From: Schmidtea nova
Taxonomy: Eukaryota
Reading direction: 5' to 3'
Assembly (NCBI GenBank): GCA_044892505.1
Contig: CM097883.1
Coordinates: forward strand, 290,346,001 to 290,410,000
DNA length: 64,000 bases
Every line of letters starts with the position of its first letter. Position 1 is the first letter of the stretch. A program made the translations under genes and the position numbers. Shown piece after piece: positions 32,281 to 61,500 of the stretch. Under the pieces are notes generated by a model. It was not told where the DNA came from. It searched no databases and saw only the letters and a program-made list of their open reading frames with translations.

Positions 32281-32671
32281 AAATAAATTAATATAAAATT
32301 AAAATAAATTAATAAATTAATGTTGGGCCCACCAATTGGTCTAAAAAGGCAAAAATATTGTACTAATTTAAACAATAAATACAAATAATAACCACAAAAA
32401 ACATTCGAAAAACCTAAATTAAAAATTAAAATAAAATAATAAATAATAATTACTAAATTTCCAGCAAAGGAAGAAAATCAAATTGACACGAGAACGAGCA
32501 GTATGGGGGTCTGAAATAAGAAAATTACAAATAAAATCAAATAAAAGTACAATTAATTGGTTAATTACTTGAAAAATCAAGACCACCCAGCGAGAAATCT
32601 GAACCGGAAATTTAAAATGGTTTATATTAAAATAAAATAACAAAATTACTTTGATGGACGGCCTGATCCTG

Positions 32672-32706
32672 ATTGGTCAATCTGACCAACTGGATCAGTA
32701 TAAATA
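32672..32706 (+). promoter_or_regulatory. LTR core promoter: reverse CCAAT (ATTGG 32672-32676) + TATAAATA (32699-32706)
   Basis: Same pair with near-identical spacing in the divergent solo LTR (10276-10280, 10302-10309). Confidence 0.7.
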
Positions 32707-33382
32707 CCGATCCAAAAATCATACAGACAACACCTAACAACTTAGTTACCGAACTGAACTATCATAGTCAACTTTGATACGATAAATACTGTATAAATTT
32801 TTGGAGAACACTGCATCGTGGATTTAAACAGTAAATTTTTTTTTTGTATTGTATTTTGTATTAATTTTTATGATATGTTTCATGATTCCCATTTGTTTTA
32901 TTTTCATTTAATATAATTTATTACTATTGCTCTATTTTTTTTTCTTATGCCATTATTTTATGATATAATAAATATACTTCCTCAGTAGCTTACGCTGCGA
33001 GGGAGCAAGCCGTAAATGTGGGATTTCACCGTTCCACAAGATGGTGAGCAGAGTTTCTATTGGTATTCTTTATTTAATTTAATTTTTTCGGAAGTTTCAC
33101 GGTACGGTAAAGTTGTGCAGGGACAAGGACACGAGTAAAATTTGTAGACAGTGGTTAACATTTACATTCGATCAGACAGGCGAAAACAAACTATAATATC
33201 AATTCTCAGGTCGACTAGATCGATTTTTTCATATACACGCAAATTTTTGTAAATCAACATAGCTGATCGAAATAATGTCCGGACACACCGAGACGATTTC
33301 GACGTTTCAACTACAGTTTAATTTAGACATAAACAACGACATATTCGGATCGACACTACTGATTAAATAAGTAAGATCGTAA

Positions 33383-33454
33383 CCTGATCGCTGTACATAG
33401 CGCAGGTAATAATAGGTAAATTTTTAATATTCCGATCGCTGTACATAGCGACGG
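33383..33454 (+). other. Two stem-bulge-stem-loop hairpins with GTACAT loop (33383-33406, 33432-33454)
   Basis: CCTG-AT-CGCT-GTACAT-AGCG-CAGG and CCG-AT-CGCT-GTACAT-AGCG-A-CGG; three covarying copies in the solo LTR. Confidence 0.8.
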
Positions 33455-33610
33455 TGTTAATTGAATAGTTTGGAAAATATTATTTTTATTTCCTCCTTTT
33501 CACATTTTTTTTTGTGTTATTGATCAACGAGCAGAGCACTTTTTATCAGGTCTCGCCAAAATTTACGGATTTATCACAGTAAAATTCTATTAGCATTATT
33601 ATTTTCGCAG

Positions 33611-34111
33611 ATGAAATCAACGATACTGGATGAATTTCTAACAACTCAACGTCATGTGGCACGGGTCGAAAATCCTCTAATCCGGACGCAACGGAAGAAA
33701 TTGAAGTCGCTTCCACAGGAACTCCTCAGAACGCTAAATGCGTTGATGTATAAATGGAGAAGGGAACTAGGAAAGAAATGCCCATTTTCGATTTGGGCCG
33801 GTGGATTGGATACCATCGTATATCGAGGAGGCCCCGGATGGGAAATTCAGGACGAAAGAGACCGGGAGACGACAGCTCTGTTCATCATAGTGGTGTCAGA
33901 CAGCGAAGGAAATCCAACGACAGTGATCCATTGGGGATATGTCTCACCGCTCAAGTTGCTTAAATTCGGGTTGATTCCGAATCACCTACCGAAAACGTGC
34001 CACGGACGCCCCAAACTAAACTGTTCGATGGCTCACATCCGAAGAAATCCAGTCAATCACGGGTTGCATATTACTCCCGTTCACGGCCTCAAGCGAAGTG
34101 TTTTCCACTAA
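33611..34111 (+). CDS. LTR ORF-A, 166 aa, unknown function (5' LTR copy)
   Basis: ATG directly after TTTTCGCAG; GC-richer than flanks; same protein in the 3' LTR. Confidence 0.65.
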   Translation: MKSTILDEFLTTQRHVARVENPLIRTQRKKLKSLPQELLRTLNALMYKWRRELGKKCPFSIWAGGLDTIVYRGGPGWEIQDERDRETTALFIIVVSDSEGNPTTVIHWGYVSPLKLLKFGLIPNHLPKTCHGRPKLNCSMAHIRRNPVNHGLHITPVHGLKRSVFH

Positions 34112-34296
34112 ACATTATATTCACATTTTTATCAACTAAACGATTTCAATAAATTAAATGGTGTTGATCCGTGTTTTTTGTTTGTCCTTAGTTAAATTTA
34201 TTTCTATTTATTTAATCATATGATTTTTACACTCGACGGATAATATTAATCTTGGTAACATGTTTGATGCATTATAAATTGGGTTTGTTATTTAGT

Positions 34297-34887
34297 ATGA
34301 CGGAAACTAGCCAACAGCGAGAATTGGACAAGGCGTGGAGAATCCGCCGAGCATTGGAAAAGGAGCTAAACCAAGAAAAAGCCTTACGAGCCAAAGCAGA
34401 AGCTCAGATTCAGCATTTACGGACCAGCTGGTTCGCACCAGCTCGCATGAAGGAGCAGATGAGTCGGACGAAAAGGGCTCAAAAGACAGCTGACGATTAT
34501 CGCACCGAATGGGAAGCAACAAAAATTGAGTTGCGCCGATGTCTCCATTCGGTGACGACTTCATTTATCGAGTCCGAATTGAAAGCACAAATCCGACCCA
34601 TTACTTACCAGAAATGGGTAGGAGAACAGAAAGTGGCCTGCTCAGTCAGTACGGACACCGATGGACTCGAGGCAACCACAGTGCAGAGTCGGGTGGAAAC
34701 CCCCACTGTACCAAACCCCGTCGGAAGAACGAATAAGTGGAAACGAATCGGCTCCAAGCGCCGTCGCCAAAGAAAGCTGTTTTCTCAACAATTGCAGACA
34801 CAAGTAACCACTATGGCAGAAATGTCGGAGGCCGAGTGGTTATCAGAGATATTCCCTCCAGAAGGAATTTTCAAAGAATTTCTATAA
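34297..34887 (+). CDS. LTR ORF-B, 196 aa, coiled coil + Arg/Lys-rich motif (5' LTR copy)
   Basis: First ATG at 34297 after TTTAG-T; protein-level conservation with 11467-12048. Confidence 0.8.
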   Translation: MTETSQQRELDKAWRIRRALEKELNQEKALRAKAEAQIQHLRTSWFAPARMKEQMSRTKRAQKTADDYRTEWEATKIELRRCLHSVTTSFIESELKAQIRPITYQKWVGEQKVACSVSTDTDGLEATTVQSRVETPTVPNPVGRTNKWKRIGSKRRRQRKLFSQQLQTQVTTMAEMSEAEWLSEIFPPEGIFKEFL

Positions 34888-35382
34888 CAGATAGAATACG
34901 ATGTCCGATTTGGGAGTCAATTAAATCTTTGCTCGTTTTTGTTTTGTTGTTGTTATTTCCTTTGTATTTCTTTCGATTAAATAATTCATATAATTAAATT
35001 TCAATTACCCGTCACACAACGAAAGGAGTAGCGATAAAAAGAACTTGAATATTATCAAATTCGTAGTTTGGTTCTGCTTGTTTGTTTTGTTTTTTTTTTT
35101 TTTGATAAATACATAGCCTCACACACACAAAATAGAACAAGAATTGCGTAAGTCCTTCTACGGCCGCGTGAACCCGTAAGCATAAAGGGGGAGTAGTCCT
35201 AGCAATAGTGCTCACCTGCCCCTCATTGCTTAACCACCCTGCGCATCACCAACTTGGTTATCAAGGGAAATAATCAAGGGCGCTCGAGTGTAGCTTACGA
35301 CTATTTATGCATGATCATGGATGGGAGATCCCTAGCAATCATTAGAATTTTTACCAAACCGTCCATGAACCCAGCATAAATT

Positions 35383-35400
35383 TGGGGGCTCAGCCGGGAT
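35383..35400 (+). promoter_or_regulatory. Primer-binding site, tRNA-Pro type
   Basis: TGGGGGCTCAGCCGGGAT, 18 nt, complementary to a tRNA-Pro 3' end (cf. MLV TGGGGGCTCGTCCGGGAT). Confidence 0.92.
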
Positions 35401-35707
35401 CAACTTCGTTTTATCGGAAAATTGTGAATGCAAAATCTGCAGAGAAGTTTAAAATGCTCGTGTCGTGTGAATAAATTTAATAAAAACAGAAAATTTGTAA
35501 TTAACTCTAAATTATGTACAAAAATAAACAACAAACACAACAGCAAATAAAAGTAAAGTATAAAAATCGAATGCATGCATAAATAATTTGTCGGGACGAC
35601 AATTTTCGGAAACACGGGGAGAGTAAATAAATGCTAAAAGATGCAAAACGAAACATATTACAACGTTAAAATTAAATTCACAAAACGAGACATATTACTA
35701 CTTTAAA

Positions 35708-36211
35708 ATGATAAAAACAACTAAGTTAAAACGATTATTTATTCAGCAAATGGAGGAAAAACTGAAAGAAATCGAAGAATTTCTCAACACAGGAAACGAA
35801 ACACTAGCAACAATTGGCAAGAAAATAAACCGATTTAGAGAAATTGAATTTCAAGAACCCACAACACAGACCGAGGAAACAGATGAATTAATAAAGATAA
35901 CAGAAAGAACAAGTAAAATCGACATAAAAACCCGCTACAAATGGTACCGAGCACGACTAGAGAATGCGGAGCTAAACATTAGATGCAGACAAATAGAACA
36001 ACAATTAACCCCAACATACAATCGATGGAGGGCGCAAGGGGTAGAAGCAGCGAAAAAATACCGACAGTGCTATATATGTGAAAACAACGAGATACAAATT
36101 ATGTTTTTACCTTGTGGACATTTCCGTTTTTGTAAGATCTGTGCCAACAAGTGTGACCGGTGTCCGATGTGCAACTTTGCCGTGAATGAAAAAATTATAG
36201 TTTATTTGTAA
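35708..36211 (+). CDS. Coiled-coil + C-terminal IAP/MDM2-type RING E3 ligase, 167 aa (no BIR)
   Basis: CYICENNEIQIMFLPCGHFRFCKICANKCDRCPMC..V.EKIIVYL-stop fits the IAP-type C3HC4 RING placed at the extreme C-terminus. Confidence 0.88.
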   Translation: MIKTTKLKRLFIQQMEEKLKEIEEFLNTGNETLATIGKKINRFREIEFQEPTTQTEETDELIKITERTSKIDIKTRYKWYRARLENAELNIRCRQIEQQLTPTYNRWRAQGVEAAKKYRQCYICENNEIQIMFLPCGHFRFCKICANKCDRCPMCNFAVNEKIIVYL

Positions 36212-36685
36212 TAAATGTTTAGAGTTAATTAGTAAAATGTCGAATGGTGAATCATGGGAATAATCATTGTATTTAAATAATTTTTGAGCTACTACAAAGT
36301 AGTCCGATAAGAATCCATTGGGGGGTACCAATTGATCAACCTAGTCAAGTATATAGAAAGGGGCCCATCGCAAATGTTGGAAAGTTTTTGTGATGTGATT
36401 GATCACCACATCCTGCATTAATAGACCAACGCGATCTTTTTGTATATTGTGGTTGGGGAGAGAGATAGGGAAATCTTGATGGAGTAAAGCGCGCATAAGA
36501 AAATAAATAAAAAGTTAAAGCAGACTGATCAGGAATTAGTTACGATAGAATAAGGAGATAAATAATAATTTTTGAAAGAATAAAAGGTGCATAGTCAGCT
36601 CGCATAGAAGTAGTTATAACTCAGCTGAGAAATTTTAATCGCTAGCGAAGTAGGGAATTGTGATTAACCGGTTAAGTAAAGTTAA

Positions 36686-36801
36686 GAGATTTGTCCCTTG
36701 AAACAAAGGGTTAGGAGATTTGTCCCTTGAAACAAAGGGTTATTAGAGTTGTCCCTTGAAACAAAGGGTTATTAGCGGTTTGTCCCTTGAAAAAAAGGGT
36801 T
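36686..36801 (+). repeat. 4 x ~28-bp repeat, each forming a CCCTT-GAAACA-AAGGG hairpin
   Basis: Directly visible; fourth loop is GAAAAA. Confidence 0.92.
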
Positions 36802-36969
36802 GAGGCCAATGAGCCATATTGAATGACCTAGCTAGGCGTTATGAGAGATTAAATTGAGGCCAATAGAGCCATTTGAGAGATTAAATTGAGGCCAATAGAG
36901 CCATTTGAGAGAATAAAATAAGGCCAATAGAGCCATGTGAGATATAAAATTGAGGCCAAAAGAGCCATA
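36801..36969 (+). repeat. ~32-bp repeat array carrying GGCCAAT boxes
   Basis: GAGAGATTAAATTGAGGCCAATAGAGCCATTT x4 from 36843 plus one partial copy at 36801. Confidence 0.9.
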
Positions 36970-37577
36970 GTGGATTACAGAGATATCCGGATAAATAGTA
37001 ACAGAGGGAATATAGACCCATAGTGTAATCGTCGACGAGATTTAGAATAGTGCGCACTAGTAGTTAAGAAATGCGAGTAAAGCTGATTATGCAACCTTAA
37101 ATAAAGCATGCAAGGAGAATAATAAAAATTCGAGCTGACCGGAGCAACCGACAGAATGAGTAAAACGATTGCTAGCAGGGAATAATGAATAAAGATGATA
37201 AAATAATGATAAACGAGTCAGAAAGACTCAGGGAATTAGAGCGCTCGAGCGACCAATAAATTGGGAAACTGTGGGAAAAGTAATGGATTTGATAAAACAT
37301 AGATAATTATTACGACATAAATAGATAATTGTGACCAGTCTATAGATAATTTAAATAGACTAAAAATAAAGGGGAATCTGGGAAGGGGAAATAATGAAAA
37401 CCCAGTAATAAGTAATCCCGAAAGAAAGGGAATAAAAGCGCGACGATAACAATAAGGTATCGTTGAGGACCTTTGTATTTTAGATATACAAATCAATCAA
37501 ATCAATCAAGCAACAAGAAGAATCAGAAAAACGATAATAGATAGGACAAGAAAATTGATAATATAAAAGTAATCCAG

Positions 37578-40500
37578 TTGAGAAAAGGAGCAAAGAGTGT
37601 CGCAATAAAGCCAACAAAAAAGCAGAAAGCCGGCAAAGATAACCACAAAAACCCACAAGGGAGTAAAGCGAGGAAAATAATAAGAGATAAATCAATTATC
37701 GAAAACGATAAATTGTCAGTAGTAAGCAACAGCTCAAGTAACAAAGAAAACCAAGCGGAACCCAAGGAGAACCAAACAAGCGAAATAGAAAGCGACGAAA
37801 CTAACAACGATAATATCGAAGAAGTAGAAAACGAGGTAGAACCAGAGGTAGAAACCAACGAGAGTGATAACGAAAGTATAATATCAGATAACATAGTAAT
37901 AAGAGAAACTGAAAGCGATTCAAGCTCGAGTGAAACAGAAGACGAACACAACAACGAATTAGAAACAAGAAGAAACGAAAGGAAAATAACTCAAGACAGC
38001 GGAATTGAAATGAGTGAACCAAGAGAAGAAATAAAGGATAAATTCCCAGGAGAACCATTCAACGGAGATGCGAGTAAATTAGAAATTTTTCTAAAGGAAT
38101 TTGGCATATTCGTGGAAGTATGCAAATGGAAAGCTGAGACAACAGCAAGTAGAATACAGTTATATTTGAAAGATAGCGCATTGGACCTATATTTGGAAGC
38201 AAAAAACGGTACCAATCCACCTACAAGCTGGACAGCGATAAAGGATTTTTTCCAACAAACATTTGGAATAAATAAAGTGCTGAGCGAGGCATTCATAGAA
38301 TTCTCAATGAGGAAACAAAAGATGAATGAATCTAATGCGGTATACGCGAGCGAACTGAAAAAATTAGCAAAATCGGTATTCAAGGATGGAGGTCCAATAA
38401 ACGAGGAGTTAATGGCAGCTATCTTCATAGGAGGACTAAGAAGACCCGACATAAGAGCGCAAGTAGGATGTCAAGGATGCAAAACCATAGATCAAGCGTT
38501 AGAAACAGCTAACCGATTTGAATTGCATATGATAGGGAGCGAAGGCAGAATTTATTTAGCCATGGACACAGCGCAAACCGAACCAGAAATAAATCTCAAC
38601 AATCACATTCCAAATTCGCAACAATTAAACCGACCACCCCCTCAACGAAGGAATGAAGGAAATAAAGCGCAGAACTTTGAAAGCCAAAACAATTACAACC
38701 CTCCAAGACAAACAAAACAATGTAAAACATGCGGGAAGTTAGGACACTGGCAGCAAGAATGCTATCAAAATTTGAATTGCGGAAAATGTGGAGTTAAAGG
38801 ACACTCGGAAAGCAGATGTTCTACAATAATCTGTTTTAATTGCGGACGACCTGGTCACTATTCAAGAAATTGCGGACAAAAAAGTAATCAGCGAGGAAAC
38901 TGGCAGAGTAATGGGAACCGACCAAATTACGGAAATCAAGCAAATACCGTAAACCGACCAGATTATGGAAACCAACAAAACAACAATAACAATAATCAGA
39001 ACAAAACCACCCCCAAAGAAATTCATTTGATGCAAGAAGTTCAAAGGTTGACGGAACTCATAAACAATACGACGAGAGGAAATCCGCAAACCAATCAACA
39101 ACAAATTAGCATGATGAGAAAAATAGAAAGCGAAAACGAACGATTGAATCGAGAAAGTAAAGCACGACACGCTCAGGAATGGGCAAGAATACAAAGAGAG
39201 GATGAACAAAAACAGCAAGAAAGAGAACGACAACCTCTAAGAATTAACATGCTAAGAGCAACAAACCAAACAGACACTCGCGAGAAAGAAATCACACTGG
39301 AAATGAATTCGATAGACCCGAATCCAGCCGACAACGAAAGTCGAAAAGAAATAGTACAAAAAGATGAAGAAGTAGAAAAAGAAGCAGAAAAGGGAGTGGA
39401 AACCGAGATAAACCAGGAAGAGAGGAAAGAGATTTGGAAAAAAGGAATGATGGTAATCATGCCCAACGACCATATGTTTCGATTCCAATATAACGCAAAA
39501 GAAGAAGTGAAAGTATTATTCAACAAAGTAAACCAGATGATTCCAGGAGTAACGAAGCTGCCCAGAGAAGCGTTCTTACAAATAGAGGGTGCACCATCAG
39601 TAAAATTGAAATTAACGGATATATGGGAAAACATGGGAGTAGTAGAAACAAAAAGAAATGTGATGAGAATTAAAGAAATAGAACCAGAAGAAATTCCACC
39701 ACCAATACGTCACGAAACCCGAATCCGGCGAATATTTGAAGGAAAAATGATAAGAAGACGTTTAAAAGAGATAGACGAGTTGGGAAAGAAAATGGAAAAA
39801 GTCGAAGTAATAGAGGACAAGAGTGAACCAACACCAGAAATTGACAAAAACGAACCAGAACCAACGGAGAATATACAAGGAGAAACGAACCAAATAGCAC
39901 ATATTAATATGCTAAGAAATACCACCAGAGAGTTTTCCGATGAAGAAGAAGATAGTGACATCAGTAGCCTAGCAGGAGACATATTAAATGAATCCGAAGA
40001 CGAAAATAAAGAAAGAGAAGTAATAAAGACCTCAGAACCTACACAGATAAAAGTAGATGAAATCCAGAAATTACTAGATAACTCGCTAGAAGTAATATAT
40101 AACGAAGAATTCATGGACAAGAAACAACATCGGAAATTCATGAAAGCATTACTACAAATGAACTACAAAGAATGGTTACAAGAACGGGAGGTAGACATGT
40201 TGAATCGATACGTAGGGAAATTAATAGAGGAACCACTCCTCAATTACACCATCTCAATAATAATAAATACATCTACACCAAGAATCTGGATCAAAACTCC
40301 ATTTACAGACGATATCTACAGATGGGTAGAGGATAGACTAGGGAGCTCATACAAAAACAAATTCATCTATTCGCAGAATAGACTCGTAAAGAAAAGAACG
40401 CACTTAGTAGAAACAGGTATATGGCCAGGAGAAATAACTCTGTTATCAATATGCGATGAAAAGGAAGAAGAGAACCTACAAGAAGTTGCAAGGGAGGCAA

Positions 40501-52000: not shown

Positions 52001-54474
52001 GAACAACGACGATTCAAATAAAAGGTTTAGAAAGTAAACAAACCTACGAAATATGTTTGGTAAAGAAAAATGATCAGATAACGGTAAACGACCTGGAATG
52101 CGGAATATATACAACTTCATCCGGAACAAGAACCAAAACGTTAACACGGAAAAATAAAAGGAAACAACAAAACAAAGGAAAACCGAAGTACACCACTACC
52201 TTTAAAAACAATAAACAACCAACAAACCAAGAAGTTACGACGAAACCCGAGAGAAAAACATCAGCAACTCTAACATTATGGAAAATAGAGAATAAAACAT
52301 TGGAAATATGTTGGATAATAGTACAGAAACATATAAGAAGACAATCAAGAGAGTGCAGAAAAACAAATAAAGAAATCAAGATCGAAAAACTACAATTTAA
52401 TAGTGAGTACGAAGTATGCGCAATAGAAATAATGGACGCACTAAGAAACCAACAAGAAAGATGCGAAACCTACTATACACCAGTAAACGCGACATCAAAA
52501 GGAATAACAAGGAAACTCGAATTCAGGGAACTAAGCCAAACGAATGAACAAATGGACGCAGAAAAAATAATAATCGACCCTCAAGCAAAATGGACACCTG
52601 AAGAAGTTATCAAAGAAGTCAAAAGAAAGCAAGAGGAACGAGAACAATTAATGAGAAAACTAAAGGGACAATACGGAATAATGTTCAACCAAAGCGAACC
52701 TATACAAACAGACGAGAATAAAGAAATTAAAGAACTAATCGGCTTAGGAATATTAACAGCAACCATACCAGTAATAATCGCGTTATCAGCTATATGGATA
52801 CGCAAGATAAGCCCAAGAAAATCAACAACCCAATGGCTAAATATAGATAATACAAGCCATGGAGTAGAAATACTAGAAGAAAAAGCACGAGAAGAACCAA
52901 ATAAGAAAGAAGCGAAAAGCGGAAAACTAGGAATAAACAACAAAGACAAGGAAATAAAAGAGATTAAAGGCGAAGAGAAAAAATATGAAAGGCGAACCAG
53001 AAGCCTACCGCAGAGTTCAAAATGGTTGGGTCTAACAATAATATTGACATTAATCAATAGGGAAGAAGCAACAAACCTACAAGCAGGGATAAAAATAGTA
53101 AATGTCCAGGAGGTCGAGAAAATATGCTGGAATAGAGAGGATGAACCAATTGGGAAAGATAACCCACTAAAATGCATAATCAGAAAATCCGACCAGGATA
53201 TAGTACGAATAGAAGGGATGGATAGAGGAATCATGCATCGAATATGCATAATAGGAAAGGAAAAGAAGTCGGGGCTACCTAAGACAGTCGTATGTCAAAA
53301 ATACGAAACGCCTGGACTCGAATGGTATAGAGTAAAACCAACAAAGAAAGAAATCAAAAACACCATAGATCAACCAGCAACTCAGATAAGAAACACAACG
53401 GATAAACCAGGAGAAGGAGAGAAAAGCACCAATAAAACGAGAGAAAGAATATCACCCCAACAGGAGTGCGTATGCATAGCATTAATACTAGCAATGTCCA
53501 AACGTATCGATAAAGGAATAATAATAGAACAAATGGCCATAACAATAAGGAAAACAAGTAGCAACAAACTATGCTGGGGAACATACAACGAACCAAGGAA
53601 GGAATACCAAGTTCAGACAAGCGACGAATCACGAACAAACAAGGAAATCGAAATACAAGAAATACAAATGAATGAAGAAGGAAGTATATGTATCTGGGAG
53701 AAAGGAATCCAAGAGGGAATAGAGCATTGCAAGACATTCCAAAAAGGAGAGATACTGAAATTCGATGAAGAAGAATTAACAAAGACAGAAAGAACTCTGA
53801 CATTAACAGGACTCGATCAGACAGTTAAAGGAATATGTTGGACAAAGCATAACCCAGAAGGGGAAGAAGACAACCTAACCCACTGTAAAGAAATAAAGAA
53901 TAAAGAAAAAGTCGAATTAAAGAAAATGGAAGTAAATAGGACATACGCGATATGTACCTTCACCAGAAAAGGTTCAGAAAAACCAGAATGCGGATTATAT
54001 CAGATCTCAGAGAAACTACAACAACAGATCGAACCAGGAAACGTGGAAAACCGAACAAAAGAAAATAACGTCAAACAACTACTAAACCGCCATTGGTCTA
54101 TACAAGAAGTAATGAACAAAGTTAAGAGTCAAATACAGAAAGAGAAGAAGCCAGAGGCTCAAACCCAAAATGGGATAAAAGCGAACCAGAATAAAAGAGA
54201 AACAAACAGTGGAAAACCAATAATAGGATTAATCAGTATAGGAATATTAATAGCATATGGAATACTGACGACAAGCATAATAGTATATTGGAGATACAGA
54301 AGGAGAAACAAAGCAACAGCCATACAATGGCCAGATATTAAAATTATGAAACAAAAAATAGAAATACCAGAAGAGATACAGCAAGAATTCCAAAGAAGAA
54401 CGAAAGGTAAAGAATTCTGGAAACAAATAGAAGATGAAGAACGATACGAGGAAAAGACGATAATGATGGTATAG
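42961..54474 (+). CDS. pol: Env-Pol-accessory polyprotein: chuvirus-like glycoprotein, PR, RT, RNase H, integrase, ankyrin repeats, FN3-like membrane modules
   Basis: Signal peptide from ATG 42961; TM ~44701-44775; DTG 45409; YIDD 46624; TDASG 47068; HX6H..CX2C 47716; D,D,E (AMDVIG, TDQGTNF, ERFNGTL); GPY; no stop in 11.5 kb; +1 frame relative to gag with overlap to 43007. Confidence 0.95.
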   Translation: MNLSSIIMMMLIWMISTDSATAFEVFDCDQMKLGEKYSLRGTEQCKDATPVELQKIKKEQWYHVYQEAELIKTMVNECKVQKTRFAFYCGRGHYSAIVMPGTEREPIVLQGEDCEALFKHGEVTTRDKIKIKGKPGMMMQQTYYVAGRITGGEGYCQGETYPMFGTLATNLVVMDTYIVELKSYEAFFEPTTGEMKTLSMCKIDRTMCQTGMSTLVYKPKVNECQLQLLQGAKFDEIQGKTFQEEDDDDKARAKHLKEALENKRQLKPDHREKRIEMRATPTVLITTNQDVGMRFIKGKATLKCSTTVYETNYPGIYVSKQEVPNAKPKIDTMDIKLHLYVNNKMDFLFHRGQASLQKVYYDLINNDCILNREILKTKLAVAITNPDSAMPLLPLREGHFGRVVGEAMYVYICEKTHASLAATTQLKPGTCTNELEIDYKGKVRYVQPVTRIINPPGFEPNPFNCSNAYGPLYQKPDGKWVMFPGRSEVIAPREFELMQLSKDRQFSDVDVSNNGIYSPKDLEAARQNILFPARREALLSNIVTITGGTDYREGPNYELLLSPAHFKKATENMMKAMWGRFLIFGQMMAGILGVILIIQIVRVIITQMLACFDIYKREKKVNWKMVVGFLPFLAKTMVLHGHSKDIHRIKRLLKILAKMKGTDEEVGRKFKKIMNDEQARQQLKRERKGLWERVKGYKTQNDSSDDDDDDDDYKGGQVYKNQAPRYIEKNPADAWKCYAPPPTMYQEPLQGEKNSTMQMMPMTNVYPMIPEDYKMRRCRSVDPQGDAHTIAVMSSNTGPVLTTTIEINGREIEAMIDTGANISAIDIKWIPQEQRREIERTNVHVIACSKEVVEVAGRWWVKIRHLNTEIDTYVAVIPALSVPCIIGTDLMPALFKEIVIDLGTMRLKDRTGQICAIEAKVTSSKQMIIPARKEKICYVKIDPTIQGDMIFEPSKRFEKRKALPMARGLVNINNNGEIPINVVNFDEEDKIIYENERLGKLTPMMDIELPIAGAEKDKEPTWNIDSELLNEDQRKQLEKLLIEYKDIFAASDLDLGTCDVTLHTIPLTDETPIALRPYKLAEAQKAVAEAEVKKMLDAEVIEPSCSPWQFPVVMVKKKDGTQRFCIDYRRLNTVTKRDTYPLPDINEMLLTLQGAAYFTSLDLKSGYWQIKMKEEDKEKTAFTIGRDLYQFRKMPFGLTNAPASFQRCMNFVTHGIKQCMVYIDDLLIYSSTFEQHIQDIRDVFVRLRQWKLKLKPSKCDWAKEKVTFLGHIVSAKGKEPDPRNIDKVKECPVPKTITQIQEFLGLCGYYRKFIKDYAGIAKPIQELVKKDVSFICGDEQQTAFETLRDKLITAPILVHPDFKKPFLLETDASGYAAGAVLGQYDDEGKERVIGYYSRTFKKHEKNYSVTEREALAIILAIKHFKYLLWGHIICITTDHQPLVWLGQHKETSSRLMRWAMQLQEYSPDIKFKSGRANANADCMSRLTFPELTDPDVQRICVLIAEDLDFSELKKDQQEDRELGQIIEFLTSRNMEVFKDNKELKEHIGKYQHRYIINKGWLLIQDGEKRLMCLPENRRKEIMIQYHDGKLGGHMSEKKTINRMRQKYYWRTMEEDIKEWIKNCLTCATRKDSGKKWKNPLQPMPIPAEPMTTIAMDVIGPLPESLNGNIYILVITDYLTKFPEAFAMQDQKAKTVAKILVEEICCRYGTPKQILTDQGTNFMSELLNEVTNYFRIAKLRTSPYHPQTNGQTERFNGTLIRMLSNYVSRHQTDWDEYIKLCLMAYRMSIHAATKLSPFQLMYGRECNMPIDLEYQPPLSQYMEDDDYITKFKERMQEIWKTAELNIKFYQESYKDLHDQKKNVKANDLKPGDWVIIETPEIIPGTVKKLQRPGRGPYEIIYKKDNNVKVKLINRPLIRPIYVNTCRCKKVPKTITTTPENRIITRSQTARINMLRANATEDDKAEIRQKEIRNKEIILKAREIMGRWHVRDEAGISRDIRHIISRYAQGLPTEPIISELLEKIPEILLLKDVGGQPALHNAIECKNIERAKEFLKIAKETNQNLDVGNREQETPLMTAAIHQADKEMIELLIKANFSWTERDREDKTVLSHVIWSSHKLMLKHIIANATWEIDELIKGDIIKEAIKIGKCDTIRKLIKWKRPEEDTWVLDINEVYSEGQNALLRYLLKFTCDQKTLLTLLDRGNINITKNEEEYKFDKEKEALFNKIRKWCAKPLDKLITYKDINNFNEKYQMIVSEYEELVKILNHPEKCKQVLEKKERESNKKLTPLFKAEAPYQARLDAIQEKAKELLPEFENSKHALEILGALVEKVHAYAKGTYNGNDITTIKKEMPVTFLLPKDGIMPIHRALRNGKDRKVMEIARIMLNCGSNMNMVDEKGDTLMIFAARAKTKTKVLEELYKAGAGLTGKTDKDNSILDVALLTHNWEMVNFIKTISNQEEIDYLTDTVRKPSVLTMMHNVELTEAILTWINPNTNEPAFRINEFTEHNQNWCIRSALITYKWPEILKMFMERKDLRITTSPKEEKYTGKWKELMKTYINNWIKAKKEILEYKSTNKVIPEQVETQEFEASNLTTLAYAKLIEEINVEDDIFDEPGGDDNTDSDDGNNSENSNDHEPPDKEENERKDKKRDKEEKKSKDEKQRDEEGEQGKNDQGDKNDTQRTGYKSTIKPFFKPELLLLTVILTLINPSQGMTCEERAIIQIKNAKGIERVCWSKKDKITEQNSPMDCRISKHEQEIIEINDLDLNTWYKICTIRKQKHPRSHNTIACAKYQTPKAAMTIQQSPKGDYILGKCGRTETQGTENKKPQATDKQTTPTLRITIERPEARVATNETERVSYQMEVLCLALILIMIKRLEEGIEIETMTITEVEDTQNTNIKCWARNNEEIGVNEIRKSRKLTTNKVIKISEVKADKTYKLCLLEKETNKKGTTKCKTFQPGEVIKFRRRTRKRNKQIKRKVNITLEIKEIEPNVKGVCWRKYEKEVNKRTTPQCRTNTGTTTIQIKGLESKQTYEICLVKKNDQITVNDLECGIYTTSSGTRTKTLTRKNKRKQQNKGKPKYTTTFKNNKQPTNQEVTTKPERKTSATLTLWKIENKTLEICWIIVQKHIRRQSRECRKTNKEIKIEKLQFNSEYEVCAIEIMDALRNQQERCETYYTPVNATSKGITRKLEFRELSQTNEQMDAEKIIIDPQAKWTPEEVIKEVKRKQEEREQLMRKLKGQYGIMFNQSEPIQTDENKEIKELIGLGILTATIPVIIALSAIWIRKISPRKSTTQWLNIDNTSHGVEILEEKAREEPNKKEAKSGKLGINNKDKEIKEIKGEEKKYERRTRSLPQSSKWLGLTIILTLINREEATNLQAGIKIVNVQEVEKICWNREDEPIGKDNPLKCIIRKSDQDIVRIEGMDRGIMHRICIIGKEKKSGLPKTVVCQKYETPGLEWYRVKPTKKEIKNTIDQPATQIRNTTDKPGEGEKSTNKTRERISPQQECVCIALILAMSKRIDKGIIIEQMAITIRKTSSNKLCWGTYNEPRKEYQVQTSDESRTNKEIEIQEIQMNEEGSICIWEKGIQEGIEHCKTFQKGEILKFDEEELTKTERTLTLTGLDQTVKGICWTKHNPEGEEDNLTHCKEIKNKEKVELKKMEVNRTYAICTFTRKGSEKPECGLYQISEKLQQQIEPGNVENRTKENNVKQLLNRHWSIQEVMNKVKSQIQKEKKPEAQTQNGIKANQNKRETNSGKPIIGLISIGILIAYGILTTSIIVYWRYRRRNKATAIQWPDIKIMKQKIEIPEEIQQEFQRRTKGKEFWKQIEDEERYEEKTIMMV

Positions 54475-54599: not shown

Positions 54600-54956
54600 A
54601 TGACCGAACAGGACGAAACAACTGAAATAACTATGGCTATGAGATGGAAAGCGCAATGCGATTTATTAGTACGAACAGTCAACTCATTACAGAACCAACT
54701 AGCGGAAAAACAAATGTTGCTATCAGAAAGTTACAACAACTGTTTCGAACAATTACACAGAATAGAGGAACAACAAAGAGCGATAACTGAACTCACCAGA
54801 GAAAATCAAACAATAAGCAACACCAACCAAAGACAAGCAATAGAAATAAACCATTTAACACGAGGAGAAAGAGAAGGATCCGAAGAAGGATGGATGAGTT
54901 GGGTAATAAATAGATTAAACAACGAAGCGGAACCAGATTCAACGAATGAGCCATAG
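54600..54956 (+). CDS. 118-aa coiled-coil accessory protein
   Basis: Heptad-rich Q/E/L sequence; TAG-AAA-ATG start context shared with neighbours. Confidence 0.7.
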   Translation: MTEQDETTEITMAMRWKAQCDLLVRTVNSLQNQLAEKQMLLSESYNNCFEQLHRIEEQQRAITELTRENQTISNTNQRQAIEINHLTRGEREGSEEGWMSWVINRLNNEAEPDSTNEP

Positions 54957-55048
54957 ATAAATAAAGCGGAAAACTGTAAATATGTAAAAATAAAAACAAG
55001 AAAAATCAAAAATAAATGACAAGTCGAATGTATATATTATTGTAGAAA

Positions 55049-56425
55049 ATGGACAGAGAAGAACGAACAATCGAAATCTTGAGATTAGAAAACAGAAAAT
55101 GGAGCAAGAGGCTCACATGCGGGAAGTGTAACAATTTATTACGAGAACCTAGACAAACGATATGTGGATGTAGAATATGTACAAAATGTATACAAGAATT
55201 AGATGCAACAGGAATAACAACATGCCCAGAATGTAAAGAAGGAAGAATAGTGTTGGACGAAACCAGAACGGATAAAGCAACCCAGAGAGAAATTATGAGC
55301 ACCATAACGGAGTGCGTAAATACACCTTGTACATGGCAAGGACAAATAAGCAATCTAGAAAATCACATGGAAAATTGCGAAGAGAAAAGAGCCGAATGCG
55401 AGAAGTGTCAACAGATAATAATACTAAAAAAGAAAGAACAACACAAGGACGAATGTAAAGAAGAAGAAATCGCATGCAAGTATTGTGAAACTCGAGAGAC
55501 AAGGAGAAGAATCGAAGAAGAACACTTAAATATAACAGAGGAGAAAATATGCGGACAATATGTAAGCAAATGTCCAAACAATTGCGAAATAACAGAAGAA
55601 ATAAAGTTACATGAACATTGGAAAATATGCACCGAAAGGCCAAGAGAATGTCCATATAACAAGCATGGATGCAAGGAAAAGCGGACGCGAAAAACAATGA
55701 AACAACACCTAGAAGAAGCAGCACTAACGCATGTGGAAATGACAAACGAAACGACAAAAGAAACGGAACAGACAATCCAGAAATTAGAAAAAGAAGTAGA
55801 ATCACATAAGATAATGATGAGTTTACTATTAGAAACAAGAGAGCAGTTTGAACTAACTCGCAAAAGAATGGAAGAGAAAATAATAGCCATAGCAGAATTA
55901 GGAAAAGGAATGAAAATACAATATAATCAATTAATACGAGAAATTGACGAAAGAAGGGACTTACCAATCGCACCTTACCTATGGAAAGTAACAGATTTCA
56001 GAGACAAACTAGCAGAAGCCAGAAATATGACGAAAACAGCAGTAATAAGCCCACCATTTTATTTATGGAAAAATGGGGTTAAAATAAGATTGAAAGTATA
56101 CCCAAATGGAGACGGAAGAGGACAAGGAACACACGTGTCAATATTTTTCTCGCTATGTAAAGGAGAATACGATGACCTAATAGAATGGCCCTTGAAAGTA
56201 GGAGTCATTATAAGAATCAGGAGTGTGGGAAAACCAGTAGAAAAGTTCTTTGAAACAGACAAACATACGAGTACGAGCGAAAAACCAACGACAGAATGCG
56301 GACTAGCAGCAGGAGAACCAATGTTTATAAGGAAAGAAAACCTATGGGAACGACTATATGCAGACACGCTATACATAGAGATGGAGAGGCATGAGAAAAC
56401 GGATAAAAAAGGATGGTTGGCGTAA
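55049..56425 (+). CDS. TRAF: TRAF-family protein (RING, TRAF zinc fingers, coiled coil, MATH), intronless, 458 aa
   Basis: CGKCNNLL.EP.QT.CGCR.C..C RING; five Zn-finger-like repeats; YLWKVTDF, ISPPFY, KVYPNGDGRGQGTHVSIFF.LCKGEYDDL.EWP MATH motifs. Confidence 0.95.
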   Translation: MDREERTIEILRLENRKWSKRLTCGKCNNLLREPRQTICGCRICTKCIQELDATGITTCPECKEGRIVLDETRTDKATQREIMSTITECVNTPCTWQGQISNLENHMENCEEKRAECEKCQQIIILKKKEQHKDECKEEEIACKYCETRETRRRIEEEHLNITEEKICGQYVSKCPNNCEITEEIKLHEHWKICTERPRECPYNKHGCKEKRTRKTMKQHLEEAALTHVEMTNETTKETEQTIQKLEKEVESHKIMMSLLLETREQFELTRKRMEEKIIAIAELGKGMKIQYNQLIREIDERRDLPIAPYLWKVTDFRDKLAEARNMTKTAVISPPFYLWKNGVKIRLKVYPNGDGRGQGTHVSIFFSLCKGEYDDLIEWPLKVGVIIRIRSVGKPVEKFFETDKHTSTSEKPTTECGLAAGEPMFIRKENLWERLYADTLYIEMERHEKTDKKGWLA

Positions 56426-56538
56426 TGAAGGAAATAACCATGTAAATAAAATGTATAGAAACAATATGAAATAACAAATAATCAAAAACAATAAAAATAA
56501 AAACTGATTAAATATTCTTTTTATCTGTAATTATAGAA

Positions 56539-57600
56539 ATGGGAAATATAGAAGTAACCTTACAAGAAGTAACCGTACATCAAGACGAAATGATCAGAAA
56601 TCACATGGAGCGGATTGGGATATGGATTCACGCCTATTATCGTAAACAGGAAGAATTGGAAAGACAAACCGAAGTACTAAGAGAAGCTGAAGAAAGGAAT
56701 CAAAGAAGTAGAGAAAAAATAGAGGAAGTCTATAAATTACTGAGGCAACAAAACGAATACTACAAAGGAATGATGAAAGAGCGACGAGAGGATAGAGATA
56801 GACAACAGATAAAAACAGACCACAAGATCCAGTCAATCACCGAACAAGCAAGATATTGGAAGAAAGAGGCAAAAGACTCTTACAAGGAAGCAAGGGAGAT
56901 AATTGAACGAACAGCGTATAGCGATGATTGGAAACTGTTTAAAGAGATCGATGAATTAAAAGAGGAATTAGGGCAAAAGATCAGTCAAGAAGCGTCAAAT
57001 AAAGTATGGAGTAAGAAAAGACAACAATTTATCAGAGAACAAGCCAAGAAAATAAAAGAATTAACTTATCAAGTACAAAGAATGGGAGAAGATTTAGCCA
57101 ATCAAGAACAATTAAAAGGTATGCTGACCGAAATGTGGAATCACAAGGAAGAAAACATGAAAAGAGACATAAATGGATATCAAGGAGTGATCACCCAGAA
57201 GAAAATAGAATTAAAAAGGACTAAAGAAAGAATGGAAGAAACAAAACAGAGTTATGAAGAAAACATAACCAACTTGACAAAAGAAAACGAAGAACTGAGA
57301 AAGAAGCTAATAGAAAAACCAGTACCCACAAAGGAAACAAGTATCACAGCAGCAGTGACCGAAATGATAGAGAAAGAAGAGAGAGAGAAAAAATTAGCAG
57401 AACTAGAAAAACAAATAGAAACCCTAACAGAGCAGGCGAACTATCTGGAATACTTATTAGATGAAGAGATCCAGATATCCCACACGTACCGAGAGGAAGT
57501 GGAAATGTGGAGGAGTACGGTAATATGGATGCCACTCCCCATAAACCAGGTGGAACCTCAAGACGAAGGTTTTCACGAACCTAACGAAACCCTCGTGTAA
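56539..57600 (+). CDS. 353-aa long coiled-coil accessory protein
   Basis: E/K/Q/R-rich heptads throughout; TAG-AA-ATG start context. Confidence 0.75.
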   Translation: MGNIEVTLQEVTVHQDEMIRNHMERIGIWIHAYYRKQEELERQTEVLREAEERNQRSREKIEEVYKLLRQQNEYYKGMMKERREDRDRQQIKTDHKIQSITEQARYWKKEAKDSYKEAREIIERTAYSDDWKLFKEIDELKEELGQKISQEASNKVWSKKRQQFIREQAKKIKELTYQVQRMGEDLANQEQLKGMLTEMWNHKEENMKRDINGYQGVITQKKIELKRTKERMEETKQSYEENITNLTKENEELRKKLIEKPVPTKETSITAAVTEMIEKEEREKKLAELEKQIETLTEQANYLEYLLDEEIQISHTYREEVEMWRSTVIWMPLPINQVEPQDEGFHEPNETLV

Positions 57601-57679
57601 ATGAGCGGAAACCAATTGTAAATAGATGATGTAAAATAAAAAGCGTCAAGCTGTATTGACTCCTATGTAAAGATAGAAA

Positions 57680-58240
57680 ATGAGAAAGCTCGCAATACCA
57701 ATACTCCTAGGGTTAATAACCATCACCCTACAGAGAGAAGATCTACAACTTACCGAAACCCAATTACGAGTTCTACCCGACAAAACCTACCAAAAAGTAG
57801 ACAGCCTAATCGAAGAAGTAATTAAAGAAATCAACGAATTCCGACAGAAATATCCCCACAATCAAGATCATCAAATCCAACAAATCTTAGATAACCAACA
57901 ACTGAAGCTAAAAGAAACCCAAAAAACCCTGAAAGAAGGTAGAGAGCCCATAAAAAGCCTAGCCCAAGCTGAAATAGAATATCAAGAGAAATATATCATA
58001 GCAATCATCATAATCCTCTCAATCAGCGTAACTATCATCGCAATCACAATCCTGATTGCCTCCTACCGGATAAAAATCCTCAAACAGAAACAAACCATCG
58101 TCAATCAAACATCAAGGCGAGACAAACGAACCCAAAGACGTATGAGAAAACATCTAGATCAAATTCAGACCCACTACGAATTAGCTACAATCAATGAGAG
58201 AACTCAAACCCAACCCAATGCGAGCCGGAGGATCGAATAG
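57680..58240 (+). CDS. 186-aa predicted type I membrane protein
   Basis: N-terminal hydrophobic leader (LAIPILLGLITITL), helical ectodomain, TM (IIAIIIILSISVTIIAITILIA), basic tail. Confidence 0.7.
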   Translation: MRKLAIPILLGLITITLQREDLQLTETQLRVLPDKTYQKVDSLIEEVIKEINEFRQKYPHNQDHQIQQILDNQQLKLKETQKTLKEGREPIKSLAQAEIEYQEKYIIAIIIILSISVTIIAITILIASYRIKILKQKQTIVNQTSRRDKRTQRRMRKHLDQIQTHYELATINERTQTQPNASRRIE

Positions 58241-58427
58241 ACTTTGTGAACATCTCTGATGAACCTTTAACTATCCTGTGACAATAATCTGATAATATTC
58301 AACTATTCTATAACAAATCTCATGATGTGTATAAATTCTATCACCCTAAGTGATTTTCTTGTGTTTATGTATATATCTGTAAAACTTTTTATGTATGATG
58401 TTATAAGTAGTTATGTATAATTAATTG

Positions 58428-58457
58428 CGGGACGCAATTTTAGGGGTCCCCGAGTGA
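58428..58457 (+). promoter_or_regulatory. PPT position, atypical (CGGGACGCAATTTTAGGGGTCCCCGAGTGA)
   Basis: Immediately precedes the 3' LTR; CGGGACG..TTTT..GGGG resembles Gypsy pre-LTR tracts but is not purely purine. Confidence 0.55.
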
Positions 58458-59747
58458 TGTTGGGCCCACCAATTGGTCTAAAAAGGCAAAAATATTGTAC
58501 TAATTTAAACAATAAATACAAATAATAACCACAAAAAACATTCGAAAAACCTAAATTAAAAATTAAAATAAAATAATAAATAATAATTACTAAATTTCCA
58601 GCAAAGGAAGAAAATCAAATTGACACGAGAACGAGCAGTATGGGGGTCTGAAATAAGAAAATTACAAATAAAATCAAATAAAAGTACAATTAATTGGTTA
58701 ATTACTTGAAAAATCGAGACCACCCAGCGAGAAATCTGAACCGGAAATTTAAAATGGTTTATATTAAAATAAAATAACAAAATTACTTTGATGGACGGCC
58801 TGATCCTGATTGGTCAATCTGACCAACTGGATCAGTATAAATACCGATCCAAAAATCATACAGACAACACCTAACAACTTAGTTACCGAACTGAACTATC
58901 ATAGTCAACTTTGATACGATAAATACTGTATAAATTTTTGGAGAACACTGCATCGTGGATTTAAACAGTAAATTTTTTTTTTGTATTGTATTTTGTATTA
59001 ATTTTTATGATATGTTTCATGATTCCCATTTGTTTTATTTTCATTTAATATAATTTATTACTATTGCTCTATTTTTTTTTCTTATGCCATTATTTTATGA
59101 TATAATAAATATACTTCCTCAGTAGCTTACGCTGCGAGGGAGCAAGCCGTAAATGTGGGATTTCACCGTTCCACAAGATGGTGAGCAGAGTTTCTATTGG
59201 TATTCTTTATTTAATTTAATTTTTTCGGAAGTTTCACGGTACGGTAAAGTTGTGCAGGGACAAGGACACGAGTAAAATTTGTAGACAGTGGTTAACATTT
59301 ACATTCGATCAGACAGGCGAAAACAAACTATAATATCAATTCTCAGGTCGACTAGATCGATTTTTTCATATACACGCAAATTTTTGTAAATCAACATAGC
59401 TGATCGAAATAATGTCCGGACACACCGAGACGATTTCGACGTTTCAACTACAGTTTAATTTAGACATAAACAACGACATATTCGGATCGACACTACTGAT
59501 TAAATAAGTAAGATCGTAACCTGATCGCTGTACATAGCGCAGGTAATAATAGGTAAATTTTTAATATTCCGATCGCTGTACATAGCGACGGTGTTAATTG
59601 AATAGTTTGGAAAATATTTTTTTTATTTCCTCCTTTTCACATTTTTTTTTGTGTTATTGATCAACGAGCAGAGCACTTTTTATCAGGTCTCGCCAAAATT
59701 TACGGATTTATCACAGTAAAATTCTATTAGCATTATTATTTTCGCAG

Positions 59748-60248
59748 ATGAAATCAACGATACTGGATGAATTTCTAACAACTCAACGTCATGTGGCACG
59801 GGTCGAAAATCCTCTAATCCGGACGCAACGGAAGAAATTGAAGTCGCTTCCACAGGAACTCCTCAGAACGCTAAATGCGTTGATGTATAAATGGAGAAGG
59901 GAACTAGGAAAGAAATGCCCATTTTCGATTTGGGCCGGTGGATTGGATACCATCGTATATCGAGGAGGCCCCGGATGGGAAATTCAGGACGAAAGAGACC
60001 GGGAGACGACAGCTTTGTTCATCATAGTGGTGTCAGACAGCGAAGGAAATCCAACGACAGTGATCCATTGGGGATATGTCTCACCGCTCAAGTTGCTTAA
60101 ATTCGGGTTGATTCCGAATCACCTACCGAAAACGTGCCACGGACGCCCCAAACTAAACTGTTCGATGGCTCACATCCGACGAAATCCAGTCAATCACGGG
60201 TTGCATATTACTCCCGTTCACGGCCTCAAGCGAAGTGTTTTCCACTAA
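59748..60248 (+). CDS. LTR ORF-A (3' LTR copy)
   Basis: Identical protein to 33611-34111. Confidence 0.65.
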   Translation: MKSTILDEFLTTQRHVARVENPLIRTQRKKLKSLPQELLRTLNALMYKWRRELGKKCPFSIWAGGLDTIVYRGGPGWEIQDERDRETTALFIIVVSDSEGNPTTVIHWGYVSPLKLLKFGLIPNHLPKTCHGRPKLNCSMAHIRRNPVNHGLHITPVHGLKRSVFH

Positions 60249-60433
60249 ACATTATATTCACATTTTTATCAACTAAACGATTTCAATAAATTAAATGGTG
60301 TTGATCCGTGTTTTTTGTTTGTCCTTAGTTAAATTTATTTCTATTTATTTAATCATATGATTTTTACACTCGACGGATAATATTAATCTTGGTAACATGT
60401 TTGATGCATTATAAATTGGGTTTGTTATTTAGT

Positions 60434-61024
60434 ATGACGGAAACTAGCCAACAGCGAGAATTGGACAAGGCGTGGAGAATCCGCCGAGCATTGGAAAAGG
60501 AGCTAAACCAAGAAAAAGCCTTACGAGCCAAAGCAGAAGCTCAGATTCAGCATTTACGGACCAGCTGGTTCGCACCAGCTCGCATGAAGGAGCAGATGAG
60601 TCGGACGGAAAGGGCTCAAAAGACAGCTGACGATTATCGCACCGAATGGGAAGCAACAAAAATTGAGTTGCGCCGATGTCTCCATTCGGTGACGACTTCA
60701 TTTATCGAGTCCGAATTGAAAGCACAAATCCGACCCATTACTTACCAGAAATGGGTAGGAGAACAGAAAGTGGCCTGCTCAGTCAGTACGGACACCGATG
60801 GACTCGAGGCAACCACAGTGCAGAGTCGGGTGGAAACCCCCACTGTACCAAACCCCGTCGGAAGAACGAATAAGTGGAAACGAATCGGCTCCAAGCGCCG
60901 TCGCCAAAGAAAGCTGTTTTCTCAACAATTGCAGACACAAGTAACCACTATGGCAGAAATGTCGGAGGCCGAGTGGTTATCAGAGATATTCCCTCCAGAA
61001 GGAATTTTCAAAGAATTTCTATAA
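60434..61024 (+). CDS. LTR ORF-B (3' LTR copy)
   Basis: One K>E difference from the 5' copy. Confidence 0.8.
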   Translation: MTETSQQRELDKAWRIRRALEKELNQEKALRAKAEAQIQHLRTSWFAPARMKEQMSRTERAQKTADDYRTEWEATKIELRRCLHSVTTSFIESELKAQIRPITYQKWVGEQKVACSVSTDTDGLEATTVQSRVETPTVPNPVGRTNKWKRIGSKRRRQRKLFSQQLQTQVTTMAEMSEAEWLSEIFPPEGIFKEFL

Positions 61025-61500
61025 CAGATAGAATACGATGTCCGATTTGGGAGTCAATTAAATCTTTGCTCGTTTTTGTTTTGTTGTTGTTATTTCCTTT
61101 GTATTTCTTTCGATTAAATAATTCATATAATTAAATTTCAATTACCCGTCACACAACGAAAGGAGTAGCGATAAAAAGAACTTGAATATTATCAAATTCG
61201 TAGTTTGGTTCTGCTTGTTTGTTTTTTTTTTTTTTTTTTTGATAAATACATAGCCTCACACACACAAAATAGAACAAGAATTGCGTAAGTCCTTCTACGG
61301 CCGCGTGAACCCGTAAGCATAAAGGGGGAGTAGTCCTAGCAATAGTGCTCACCTGCCCCTCATTGCTTAACCACCCTGCGCATCACCAACTTGGTTATCA
61401 AGGGAAATAATCAAGGGCGCTCGAGTGTAGCTTACGACTATTTATGCATGATCATGGATGGGAGATCCCTAGCAATCATTAGAATTTTTACCAAACCGTC

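Follow-up and report, generated by a model that had tools for sequence, protein, structure and literature searches.

A giant, envelope-bearing Ty3/gypsy retroelement of Schmidtea nova, very probably of the Burro type, with genes inside its terminal repeats

The Burro-type elements (Burro/GYPSM1) of planarians, the largest long terminal repeat (LTR) retroelements described in PMC6431247, exceed 30 kb in length and possess an internal region of up to 25 kb, ankyrin repeats and accessory open reading frames (ORFs). Their described parts comprise a Gag with CCHC knuckles, MATH/TRAF, SUMO-like, BCL2-like and BIR domains, an env placed in frame between gag and pol that matches the fusion proteins of mononegaviruses, and a dUTPase-like domain between the protease (PR) and the reverse transcriptase (RT), and these elements have already been proposed to be integrated proviruses (PMC6431247). 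According to the available portion of PMC8532177, BURRO1 and BURRO4 are under PIWI control, while a passage of PMC13465017 relates at second hand that Burro1 carries a BIR-RING protein which protects planarian stem cells from apoptosis; the passages of PMC11410931 and PMC13238120 that name Burro mention it and say no more. Moreover, elements with the gene order GAG-ENV-POL and an HSV/gB-type env have been catalogued in Platyhelminthes, six of them from Schmidtea mediterranea, in the available part of PMC13524379. Herein, an element of Schmidtea nova is described from a stretch of 64,000 nucleotides (assembly GCA_044892505.1, contig CM097883.1, positions 290,346,001 to 290,410,000, forward strand), the whole of which is termed the window and supplies the positions used below (Table 1). 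The element belongs to a giant Ty3/gypsy family of high copy number, and this copy of it was inserted recently. Judged by domain order and by the likeness of its env, this family is very probably a Burro-type planarian element, the comparison with Burro being one of descriptions, and it is likely to replicate as an enveloped, virus-like retroelement.

Comparison of the window with itself disclosed a long direct repeat (32320-35363 versus 58457-61500, 99.8% identical), and the LTR pair of this copy differs by 6 mismatches over 3,042 columns with 0 gaps. With its end defined by sibling copies, the 5' LTR measures 3,055 bp, which upholds the 3-kb LTRs of the original prediction, a reading made from the letters of this stretch. 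The final bases of the 3' LTR and the target-site duplication of the window copy are covered by a stretch of N (61501-61757). The internal region amounts to 23.1 kb and the whole element to about 29.2 kb, slightly less than 30 kb, and the primer-binding site begins six bases past the end of the 5' LTR. A tandem tRNA gene array with a period of 308 bp, mainly of tRNA-Pro(TGG), was found in the genome, the tRNA fitting the primer site of the element, and the tRNA 3'-end pattern has 1,106 genomic matches. Assignment to Ty3/gypsy (Metaviridae) is based on the order PR-RT-RNase H-integrase (IN) with the catalytic motifs, on the TG...CA LTRs and the tRNA primer site, and on a short target-site duplication, which is seen in the siblings and masked in the window copy.

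Many LTR pairs in the genome are spaced about 26 kb apart, and six of the 40 listed were picked for this spacing, three stretches being fetched per pair. All six siblings are collinear with the window element at 92-99% identity, lie on three chromosome-scale contigs, possess LTR pairs that are 99.6-100% identical and are each flanked by a 4-bp target duplication of their own. When the best 150 of 21,343 candidate RT matches in the genome were scored, 102 were 100% identical over 180 aa, and 82 fell in open frames longer than 3,900 codons, including 30 in frames of at least 5,600. Across the family, gag-env-pol forms a single frame of about 5,650 codons, and the layout is one polyprotein with seven accessory ORFs, that is, eight ORFs and not nine; the nine distinct ORFs formerly counted are indeed present on the plus strand of the window copy and do not describe the family.

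Ahead of the pol domains, the polyprotein begins with a Gag capsid (Retrotrans_gag, E 1.9e-4) and three CCHC knuckles read from the translation. Before its first ATG, the gag frame runs on without a stop over 155 codons (37545-38009), a basic and then acidic stretch in which selection is not significant, and a spliced or non-ATG gag start is possible. Env was identified as a Monjiviricetes/chuvirus-type fusion glycoprotein (PF24664, E 1.5e-70, aa 276-616 of the ORF at 42961-54474), whose signal-like segment, 14 cysteines and anchor are all conserved; comparison of its sequence with PDB gave no real match. As had been predicted, env precedes pol: within one ORF, PF24664 is followed by PR, RT, RNase H and IN. 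The predicted gB-type env, flanked by gag and pol and bearing a signal-like and a transmembrane segment, agrees with the GAG-ENV-POL errantiviruses of the HSV/gB type. Upstream of env, the putative Bcl-2-like segment is 28% identical to the segment found at that position in another family, which itself scores above the Pfam cut-off, and a five-row profile of such segments matches Bcl-xL with an E-value of 1.7e-8. Within its last 1,150 residues, the polyprotein repeats a unit of about 80 aa seven times, four residues being invariant, and these repeats are arranged in two modules, in which signal-like segments were read by eye and transmembrane segments from hydropathy. These repeats are probably of the FN3 type: an eight-unit profile retrieves 146 proteins, PF00041 being present in 24 of 25 scanned, and an atlas search of the tail, which counts as no more than a lead, returned FN3 proteins with a score of 0.80. 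Both the FN3 and the Bcl-2-like assignments derive from sequence profiles. A cleavage-like motif occurs at five sites by regular expression, counted without a control.

In comparison with Burro, the family shares the giant size (29.2 kb in total and 23 kb internally, versus about 30 kb and around 25 kb), the high copy number, and gag-env-pol in one frame with env between the BCL2-like domain and PR, an arrangement that holds for the family and is broken in the window copy. Its Gag bears three CCHC knuckles where Burro has two or three, a Ubi2/SUMO-like domain (PF11976) precedes the BCL2-like one, the matches in the window being weak, and the BCL2-like domain, the ankyrin, TRAF/MATH and coiled-coil cargo and the accessory ORFs recur as well. 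Every Burro feature looked for was found apart from BIR, which is absent, and the dUTPase-like domain, for which there are weak matches only. The polyprotein, at about 5,650 codons, is longer than those of Burro (4,873 and 5,140 aa), and the RING protein comes without a BIR, unlike that of Burro1, a B-IAP (BIR plus RING). Large size, long LTRs and extra ORFs are likewise shared with the plant Ogre/Tat elements (PMC6431247). Gene order and env type resemble those of Smed_errantivirus_5 and _6, whose listed spans are 16.9 kb and 18.0 kb, the former equal to the frame length of the family; the supplement rows of PMC13524379 give neither LTR nor tRNA for the two. Counted by eye against those rows, the window env is identical to Smed_errantivirus_5 in 41 of 102 columns, and the env of a third family is identical to Smed_errantivirus_3 in 45 of 67, which makes a dugesiid planarian the likely host. 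In this third family, a single frame of up to about 3,070 codons holds gag, a ubiquitin-like (Ubl) domain, a Bcl-2 domain that exceeds the Pfam cut-off, and env. The original prediction was right in seeing a giant Ty3/gypsy element with many genes, an env among them, and with the layout of a complex virus.

As a measure of selection, the ratio of nonsynonymous to synonymous change (dN/dS) was estimated by counting each single-base codon variant once among the six siblings, with four LTR loci added for the LTR genes. The core genes and most accessory genes are under purifying selection: the ratio is 0.05 for env, 0.02 for RT/IN, 0.02-0.04 for the region from PR to IN, 0.08 for the gag core, 0.16 for the ankyrin repeats, and 0.33 and 0.40 for tail modules A and B, while LTR gene 1 gives 0.23 (p 1e-8), LTR gene 2 0.18-0.20 (p at most 3e-13), TRAF 0.18, and the 118-aa ORF and the coiled-coil ORF 0.08 each. 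Shifted frames (0.6-5.5) and non-coding stretches (0.9-1.7) served as controls. The accessory genes are real, and the two LTR-encoded ORFs, present in both LTRs, as well as the signalling-gene cassette, whose RING and TRAF members are confirmed by Pfam, stand as originally predicted.

The mechanism proposed for the family begins with a long RNA from the 5' LTR, the translation of which would yield a single polyprotein that passes back and forth across the membrane of the endoplasmic reticulum. The Gag, ubiquitin-like and Bcl-2-like parts would remain cytosolic; an internal signal would then export the gB-type fusogen, whose anchor would bring PR, RT, RNase H, IN and the ankyrin repeats back to the cytosol, and further signals would export two FN3-transmembrane proteins. 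The pieces would be freed by signal peptidase and by the protease of the element itself, and the accessory genes would be produced by splicing onto acceptors that adjoin their ATGs. The Bcl-2-like, RING, TRAF and ankyrin cargo might damp host cell death and innate signalling, while Env and the FN3 proteins might serve passage from cell to cell. Taken as a whole, from Burro-type identity to virus-like enveloped replication, this mechanism is considered fairly probable.

Several points weigh against this combined reading. Its expression, splicing and cleavage, like its particles and spread, are predictions from the sequence. Concerning its Burro side, no named Burro protein has been aligned or placed in the tree: the RT tree, made by a quick method with 64 rows (57 of 120 database rows were excluded for coverage below 90% or as surplus pseudoscorpion rows), holds no named Burro row and sets the window element beside 15 polyproteins, 14 of them env-bearing, at a support of 87, not starred. 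The TRAF is a full-length, separate downstream gene, unlike Burro, in which MATH sits in ORF1 or an upstream ORF. No BIR of credible spacing emerged from a six-frame motif scan, and none from Pfam in the nine ORFs; because there is no BIR, the window element is not Burro1 itself. The first Ubl domain matches Ubiquitin_4 at E 0.07, weakly and below the cut-off, while the second is represented by a 33% homolog in a sister family whose match to PF11976 (E 3.6e-4) is also below the cut-off. The Bcl-2-like segment alone does not reach the Pfam cut-off, two of the five rows of its profile were chosen for their own Bcl-2 match, which biases the E-value, and a single-sequence fold of the Ubl/Bcl-2 region, at pLDDT 35, was unusable. 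For the dUTPase-like region, all five PDB matches are dUTPase or dCTP deaminase, yet weak and below the cut-off (E 0.095-0.75). In the tail, the FN3-type Pfam matches found in all five units tested are weak, with single-domain scores below the cut-off, the profile matches are summed over repeats, and no PDB match was obtained for the tail, either singly or as a profile. The RING ORF has a dN/dS of 0.59, not significant, and the small membrane ORF, with 8 variants, gives no significant signal. Finally, the TAG-A(2-3)-ATG pattern discussed below was defined after the starts were known, and 61 of the 511 ATGs satisfy a less strict YAG rule.

The main rival, which has a modest chance of being right, holds that a Burro-type element transposes only within the cell, Env and the FN3 proteins being retained for a role in anchoring to membranes, in the assembly of particles or in decoy signalling. 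In its favor, the Bcl-2-like, IAP-type RING, TRAF and ankyrin cargo acts inside the cell, and the FN3 tails evolve fast (0.33-0.40), as decoys might. Set against this are the strong purifying selection on Env (0.05) with retention of its signal-like segment, 14 cysteines and anchor, and the presence of env in all three autonomous families compared.

As regards the expression of the accessory genes, the pattern TAG-A(2-3)-ATG occurs at 4 of the 511 ATGs of the internal region, and these are exactly the ATGs with which the four downstream ORFs begin, ORFs that lie 79-125 bp apart; AG is retained at 23 of 24 downstream starts in the siblings, sister families share the feature, and the YAG before LTR gene 1 is retained in 6/6 siblings, once with TAG in place of CAG. 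These conserved AG sites are read as putative splice acceptors. Cis-splicing of the accessory genes from the LTR leader is the simpler reading and is moderately favored, while spliced-leader trans-splicing appears rather unlikely. The latter is possible since parasitic flatworms possess spliced-leader trans-splicing and operons and use acceptors common to both splicing modes, as stated in the available part of PMC12582326. AATAAA was considered as a sign of operon processing and set aside: it is found in three of the four spacers before downstream genes, but the spacers are 44-58% A. That the family represents true planarian viruses passing between cells, with a gB-type fusogen and FN3 attachment or decoy proteins from one polyprotein and an operon-like accessory array, including the two LTR genes, trans-spliced by the host, is improbable.

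That the element is an endogenous and perhaps infectious metavirus from a clade not yet described, as the original prediction had it, is very doubtful. Its closest database relatives are 15 metagenome env-pol polyproteins (P0046, P0048, P0050-55, P0057, P0058, P0062, P0064, P0065, P0067 and P0068), which are only 48-53% identical over RT-IN and would leave room for a new clade. Moreover, the LTR genes, the FN3-transmembrane tail, the acceptor-ATG signal and the downstream cassette go unmentioned in section 7 of PMC6431247, and primary Burro papers may already report the first three; the LTR genes, the FN3 tail and the cassette are unmentioned in the available text of PMC13524379 too, in the main-text portion of which "fibronectin", "ankyrin" and "accessory" have zero occurrences. 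However, the domain order is that of the published Burro/GYPSM1 (PMC6431247), and the env resembles those of Schmidtea GAG-ENV-POL elements catalogued in the available part of PMC13524379, so that neither the claim of a new clade nor the statement that no described element has this layout is sustained. Membership in an already described family of this layout, named with the prediction as its possible undoing, is borne out by domain order and env likeness and not by a tree containing a named Burro.

Among these metagenome polyproteins, 14 of 15 resemble the window element in carrying PF24664 in the same chain as pol, and 11 possess at least two hydrophobic segments after integrase, three one and one none; their tails are shorter, and Ig-type Pfam matches were found in two. 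A second membrane protein at the end of the polyprotein may be clade-wide. P0048 has the Ubl, Bcl-2-like and ankyrin parts as well, but its ankyrin repeats sit between env and protease, unlike those of the window element. Within the genome, a sister subfamily of about 80% DNA identity carries one frame of 5,140 codons in both copies fetched, the same four downstream genes and an otherwise different LTR with distant homologs (27-39%) of both LTR genes. It has a single FN3-transmembrane module, the stretch of module B being missing, and the number of modules thus differs between subfamilies, two in the window family and one in the sister.

In the window copy, the polyprotein of 16.5 kb is split over two frames of 1,665 and 3,837 aa by a frame-changing indel near 42.9 kb, which is found in none of the six siblings, so that the element is not intact and does not contain the 17 kb of stop-free polyprotein originally described. 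In the siblings and the sister-subfamily copies, a single frame continues across the gag-env junction; the division into a gag ORF and an env-pol ORF is therefore a fault peculiar to the window copy, caused by mutation or assembly error. Other breaks within the gag-env stretch occur in four of the six siblings. On its own, the broken window copy would depend on siblings, or on an internal start, for its Env and Pol. A regulated arrangement with no damage, by programmed frameshift or a separate env-pol start, is highly improbable: the second frame does open with an ATG and a signal-like segment 47 nt before the end of the first, and 7 of the best 150 RT matches, the window copy among them, lie in frames of 3,800-3,900 codons, whereas the junction is read through in 6/6 siblings and 2/2 sister-subfamily copies. 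Mis-assembly or a nest of several elements, the other possible undoing named with the prediction, was checked and has a negligible chance, being refuted for the family by six collinear copies on three chromosome-scale contigs with a target duplication each, even if very high copy number hinders assembly and the N stretch adjoins the 3' LTR.

Table 1. Coordinates of the window element and its parts (window positions); roles of signals and weakly matching domains are predicted
Feature	Position	Strand	Description
5' LTR	32322..35376	+	3,055 bp, TG...CA; end set by sibling copies
TATA-like word	32699		within 5' LTR; candidate promoter
Donor-like sites	near 33405 and 33415		in 5' LTR; putative splice donors
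LTR gene 1	33611..34111 (second copy 59748-60248)	+	166 aa, no family; YAG directly before ATG
LTR gene 2	34267..34887 (second copy 60404-61024)	+	206 aa, no family
Primer-binding site	35383..35400	+	18 nt that pair with the host tRNA-Pro(TGG) at its 3' end, including the added CCA
RING ORF	35708..36211	+	167 aa; helical region and IAP-type RING
Polyprotein, first part	38010..43007 (frame open from 37545)	+	Gag capsid, three CCHC knuckles, two Ubl, Bcl-2-like
Ubiquitin/SUMO-like domains, two	about 40752-41000 and 41592-41816	+	weak Pfam matches
Bcl-2-like domain	about 42450-42869	+	PF00452, E 0.08 alone
Frame break separating gag from env	approx. 42850..43010	+	window copy versus siblings
Env	42961..44775	+	signal-like segment, gB-like fusion ectodomain, transmembrane aa 587-605 (hydropathy)
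PR, dUTPase-like, RT, RNase H, integrase	45340..48750	+	PR (DTGA), RT (YIDD), integrase (HHCC, D-D-E)
dUTPase-like domain	about 45691-46059	+	between PR and RT; weak PDB matches
Ankyrin-repeat clusters, two	48850..50700	+	after integrase; Ank_2, E 1.5e-11
Tail module A	51040..52800	+	signal-like segment, four FN3-type units, transmembrane aa 3260-3278
Tail module B	53020..54474	+	signal-like segment, three FN3-type units, transmembrane aa 3757-3775, cytoplasmic end
118-aa accessory ORF	54600..54956	+	coiled-coil-like; no family above cut-off
TRAF	55049..56425	+	458 aa, full-length, intronless: RING, zinc fingers, coiled coil, MATH
Coiled-coil ORF	56539..57600	+	353 aa; homologs in sister families
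Small predicted type-I membrane protein	57680..58240	+	186 aa (hydropathy); 63-64% homolog in sister subfamily
3' LTR	58459..61500 (visible part)	+	continues into N stretch

Regarding the individual accessory genes, LTR gene 1 is of full length in 5/6 siblings and has a 27-31% homolog in the LTR of the sister subfamily; an atlas search with it gave no match, and its sole Pfam match, Flexi_CP_N (E 0.002), was rejected as below the cut-off. LTR gene 2, which is of full length in 6/6 siblings with a 32-39% homolog in the sister-subfamily LTR, likely starts at its second ATG (34297), giving 196 aa. The RING ORF matches PF13920 (E 3e-11) and the RING of XIAP/cIAP (E 1e-9); it retains its stop-free length in 6/6 siblings, its start codon is unclear in two, and a sister family holds a 26% homolog. 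Sister families also contain homologs of the 118-aa ORF (74% and 33%). The TRAF ORF matches TRAF3 (E 3e-23), and a homolog search for its donor returned one protein only. The leader that separates gag from the RING ORF contains two short tandem arrays with 29-bp and 32-bp units (36681-36968).

A further sister family of about 17 kb has terminal repeats of 3.1-4.1 kb, between which no RT or env match was found. Its ORFs encode a RING protein, a Ubl-protease-ankyrin-FN3 protein, a homolog of the 118-aa ORF, TRAF, BIR-RING, a coiled-coil protein and three more, and most ORF starts directly follow AG. The BIR-RING protein is of the B-IAP type (389 aa), and at least 150 BIR matches are present in the genome. 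From its predicted gene content, this family appears to be a non-autonomous element that transports anti-apoptotic cargo.

Elsewhere in the window, a remnant of a related element (12358-12552) comprises 195 bp with 78% likeness to the terminal part of the LTR on its 3' side. A fragment of S-adenosylmethionine decarboxylase (61961-62539, plus strand; PF01536, E 1e-27) is adjoined by a DDE_1 transposase remnant (63209-63676, minus strand). Additionally, the minus-strand stretches 3976-6165, 7555-8259 and 22045-23049 hold a 729-aa ORF with no family above the cut-off and two DUF4371 ORFs, which we take to be hAT-transposase-like.

A family that lacks BIR and yet carries a Bcl-2-like domain, an IAP-type RING and a full TRAF points to modularity of the cargo in these elements. 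The LTR genes, the duplicated FN3 membrane module and the acceptor-marked gene array are possibly undescribed, and the acceptor sites, LTR genes and FN3 tail offer exact targets with which expression and cell-to-cell movement could be examined cheaply at the RNA and protein levels. If the trans-splicing virus reading were true, the family would be a retroelement using the operon machinery of its host.

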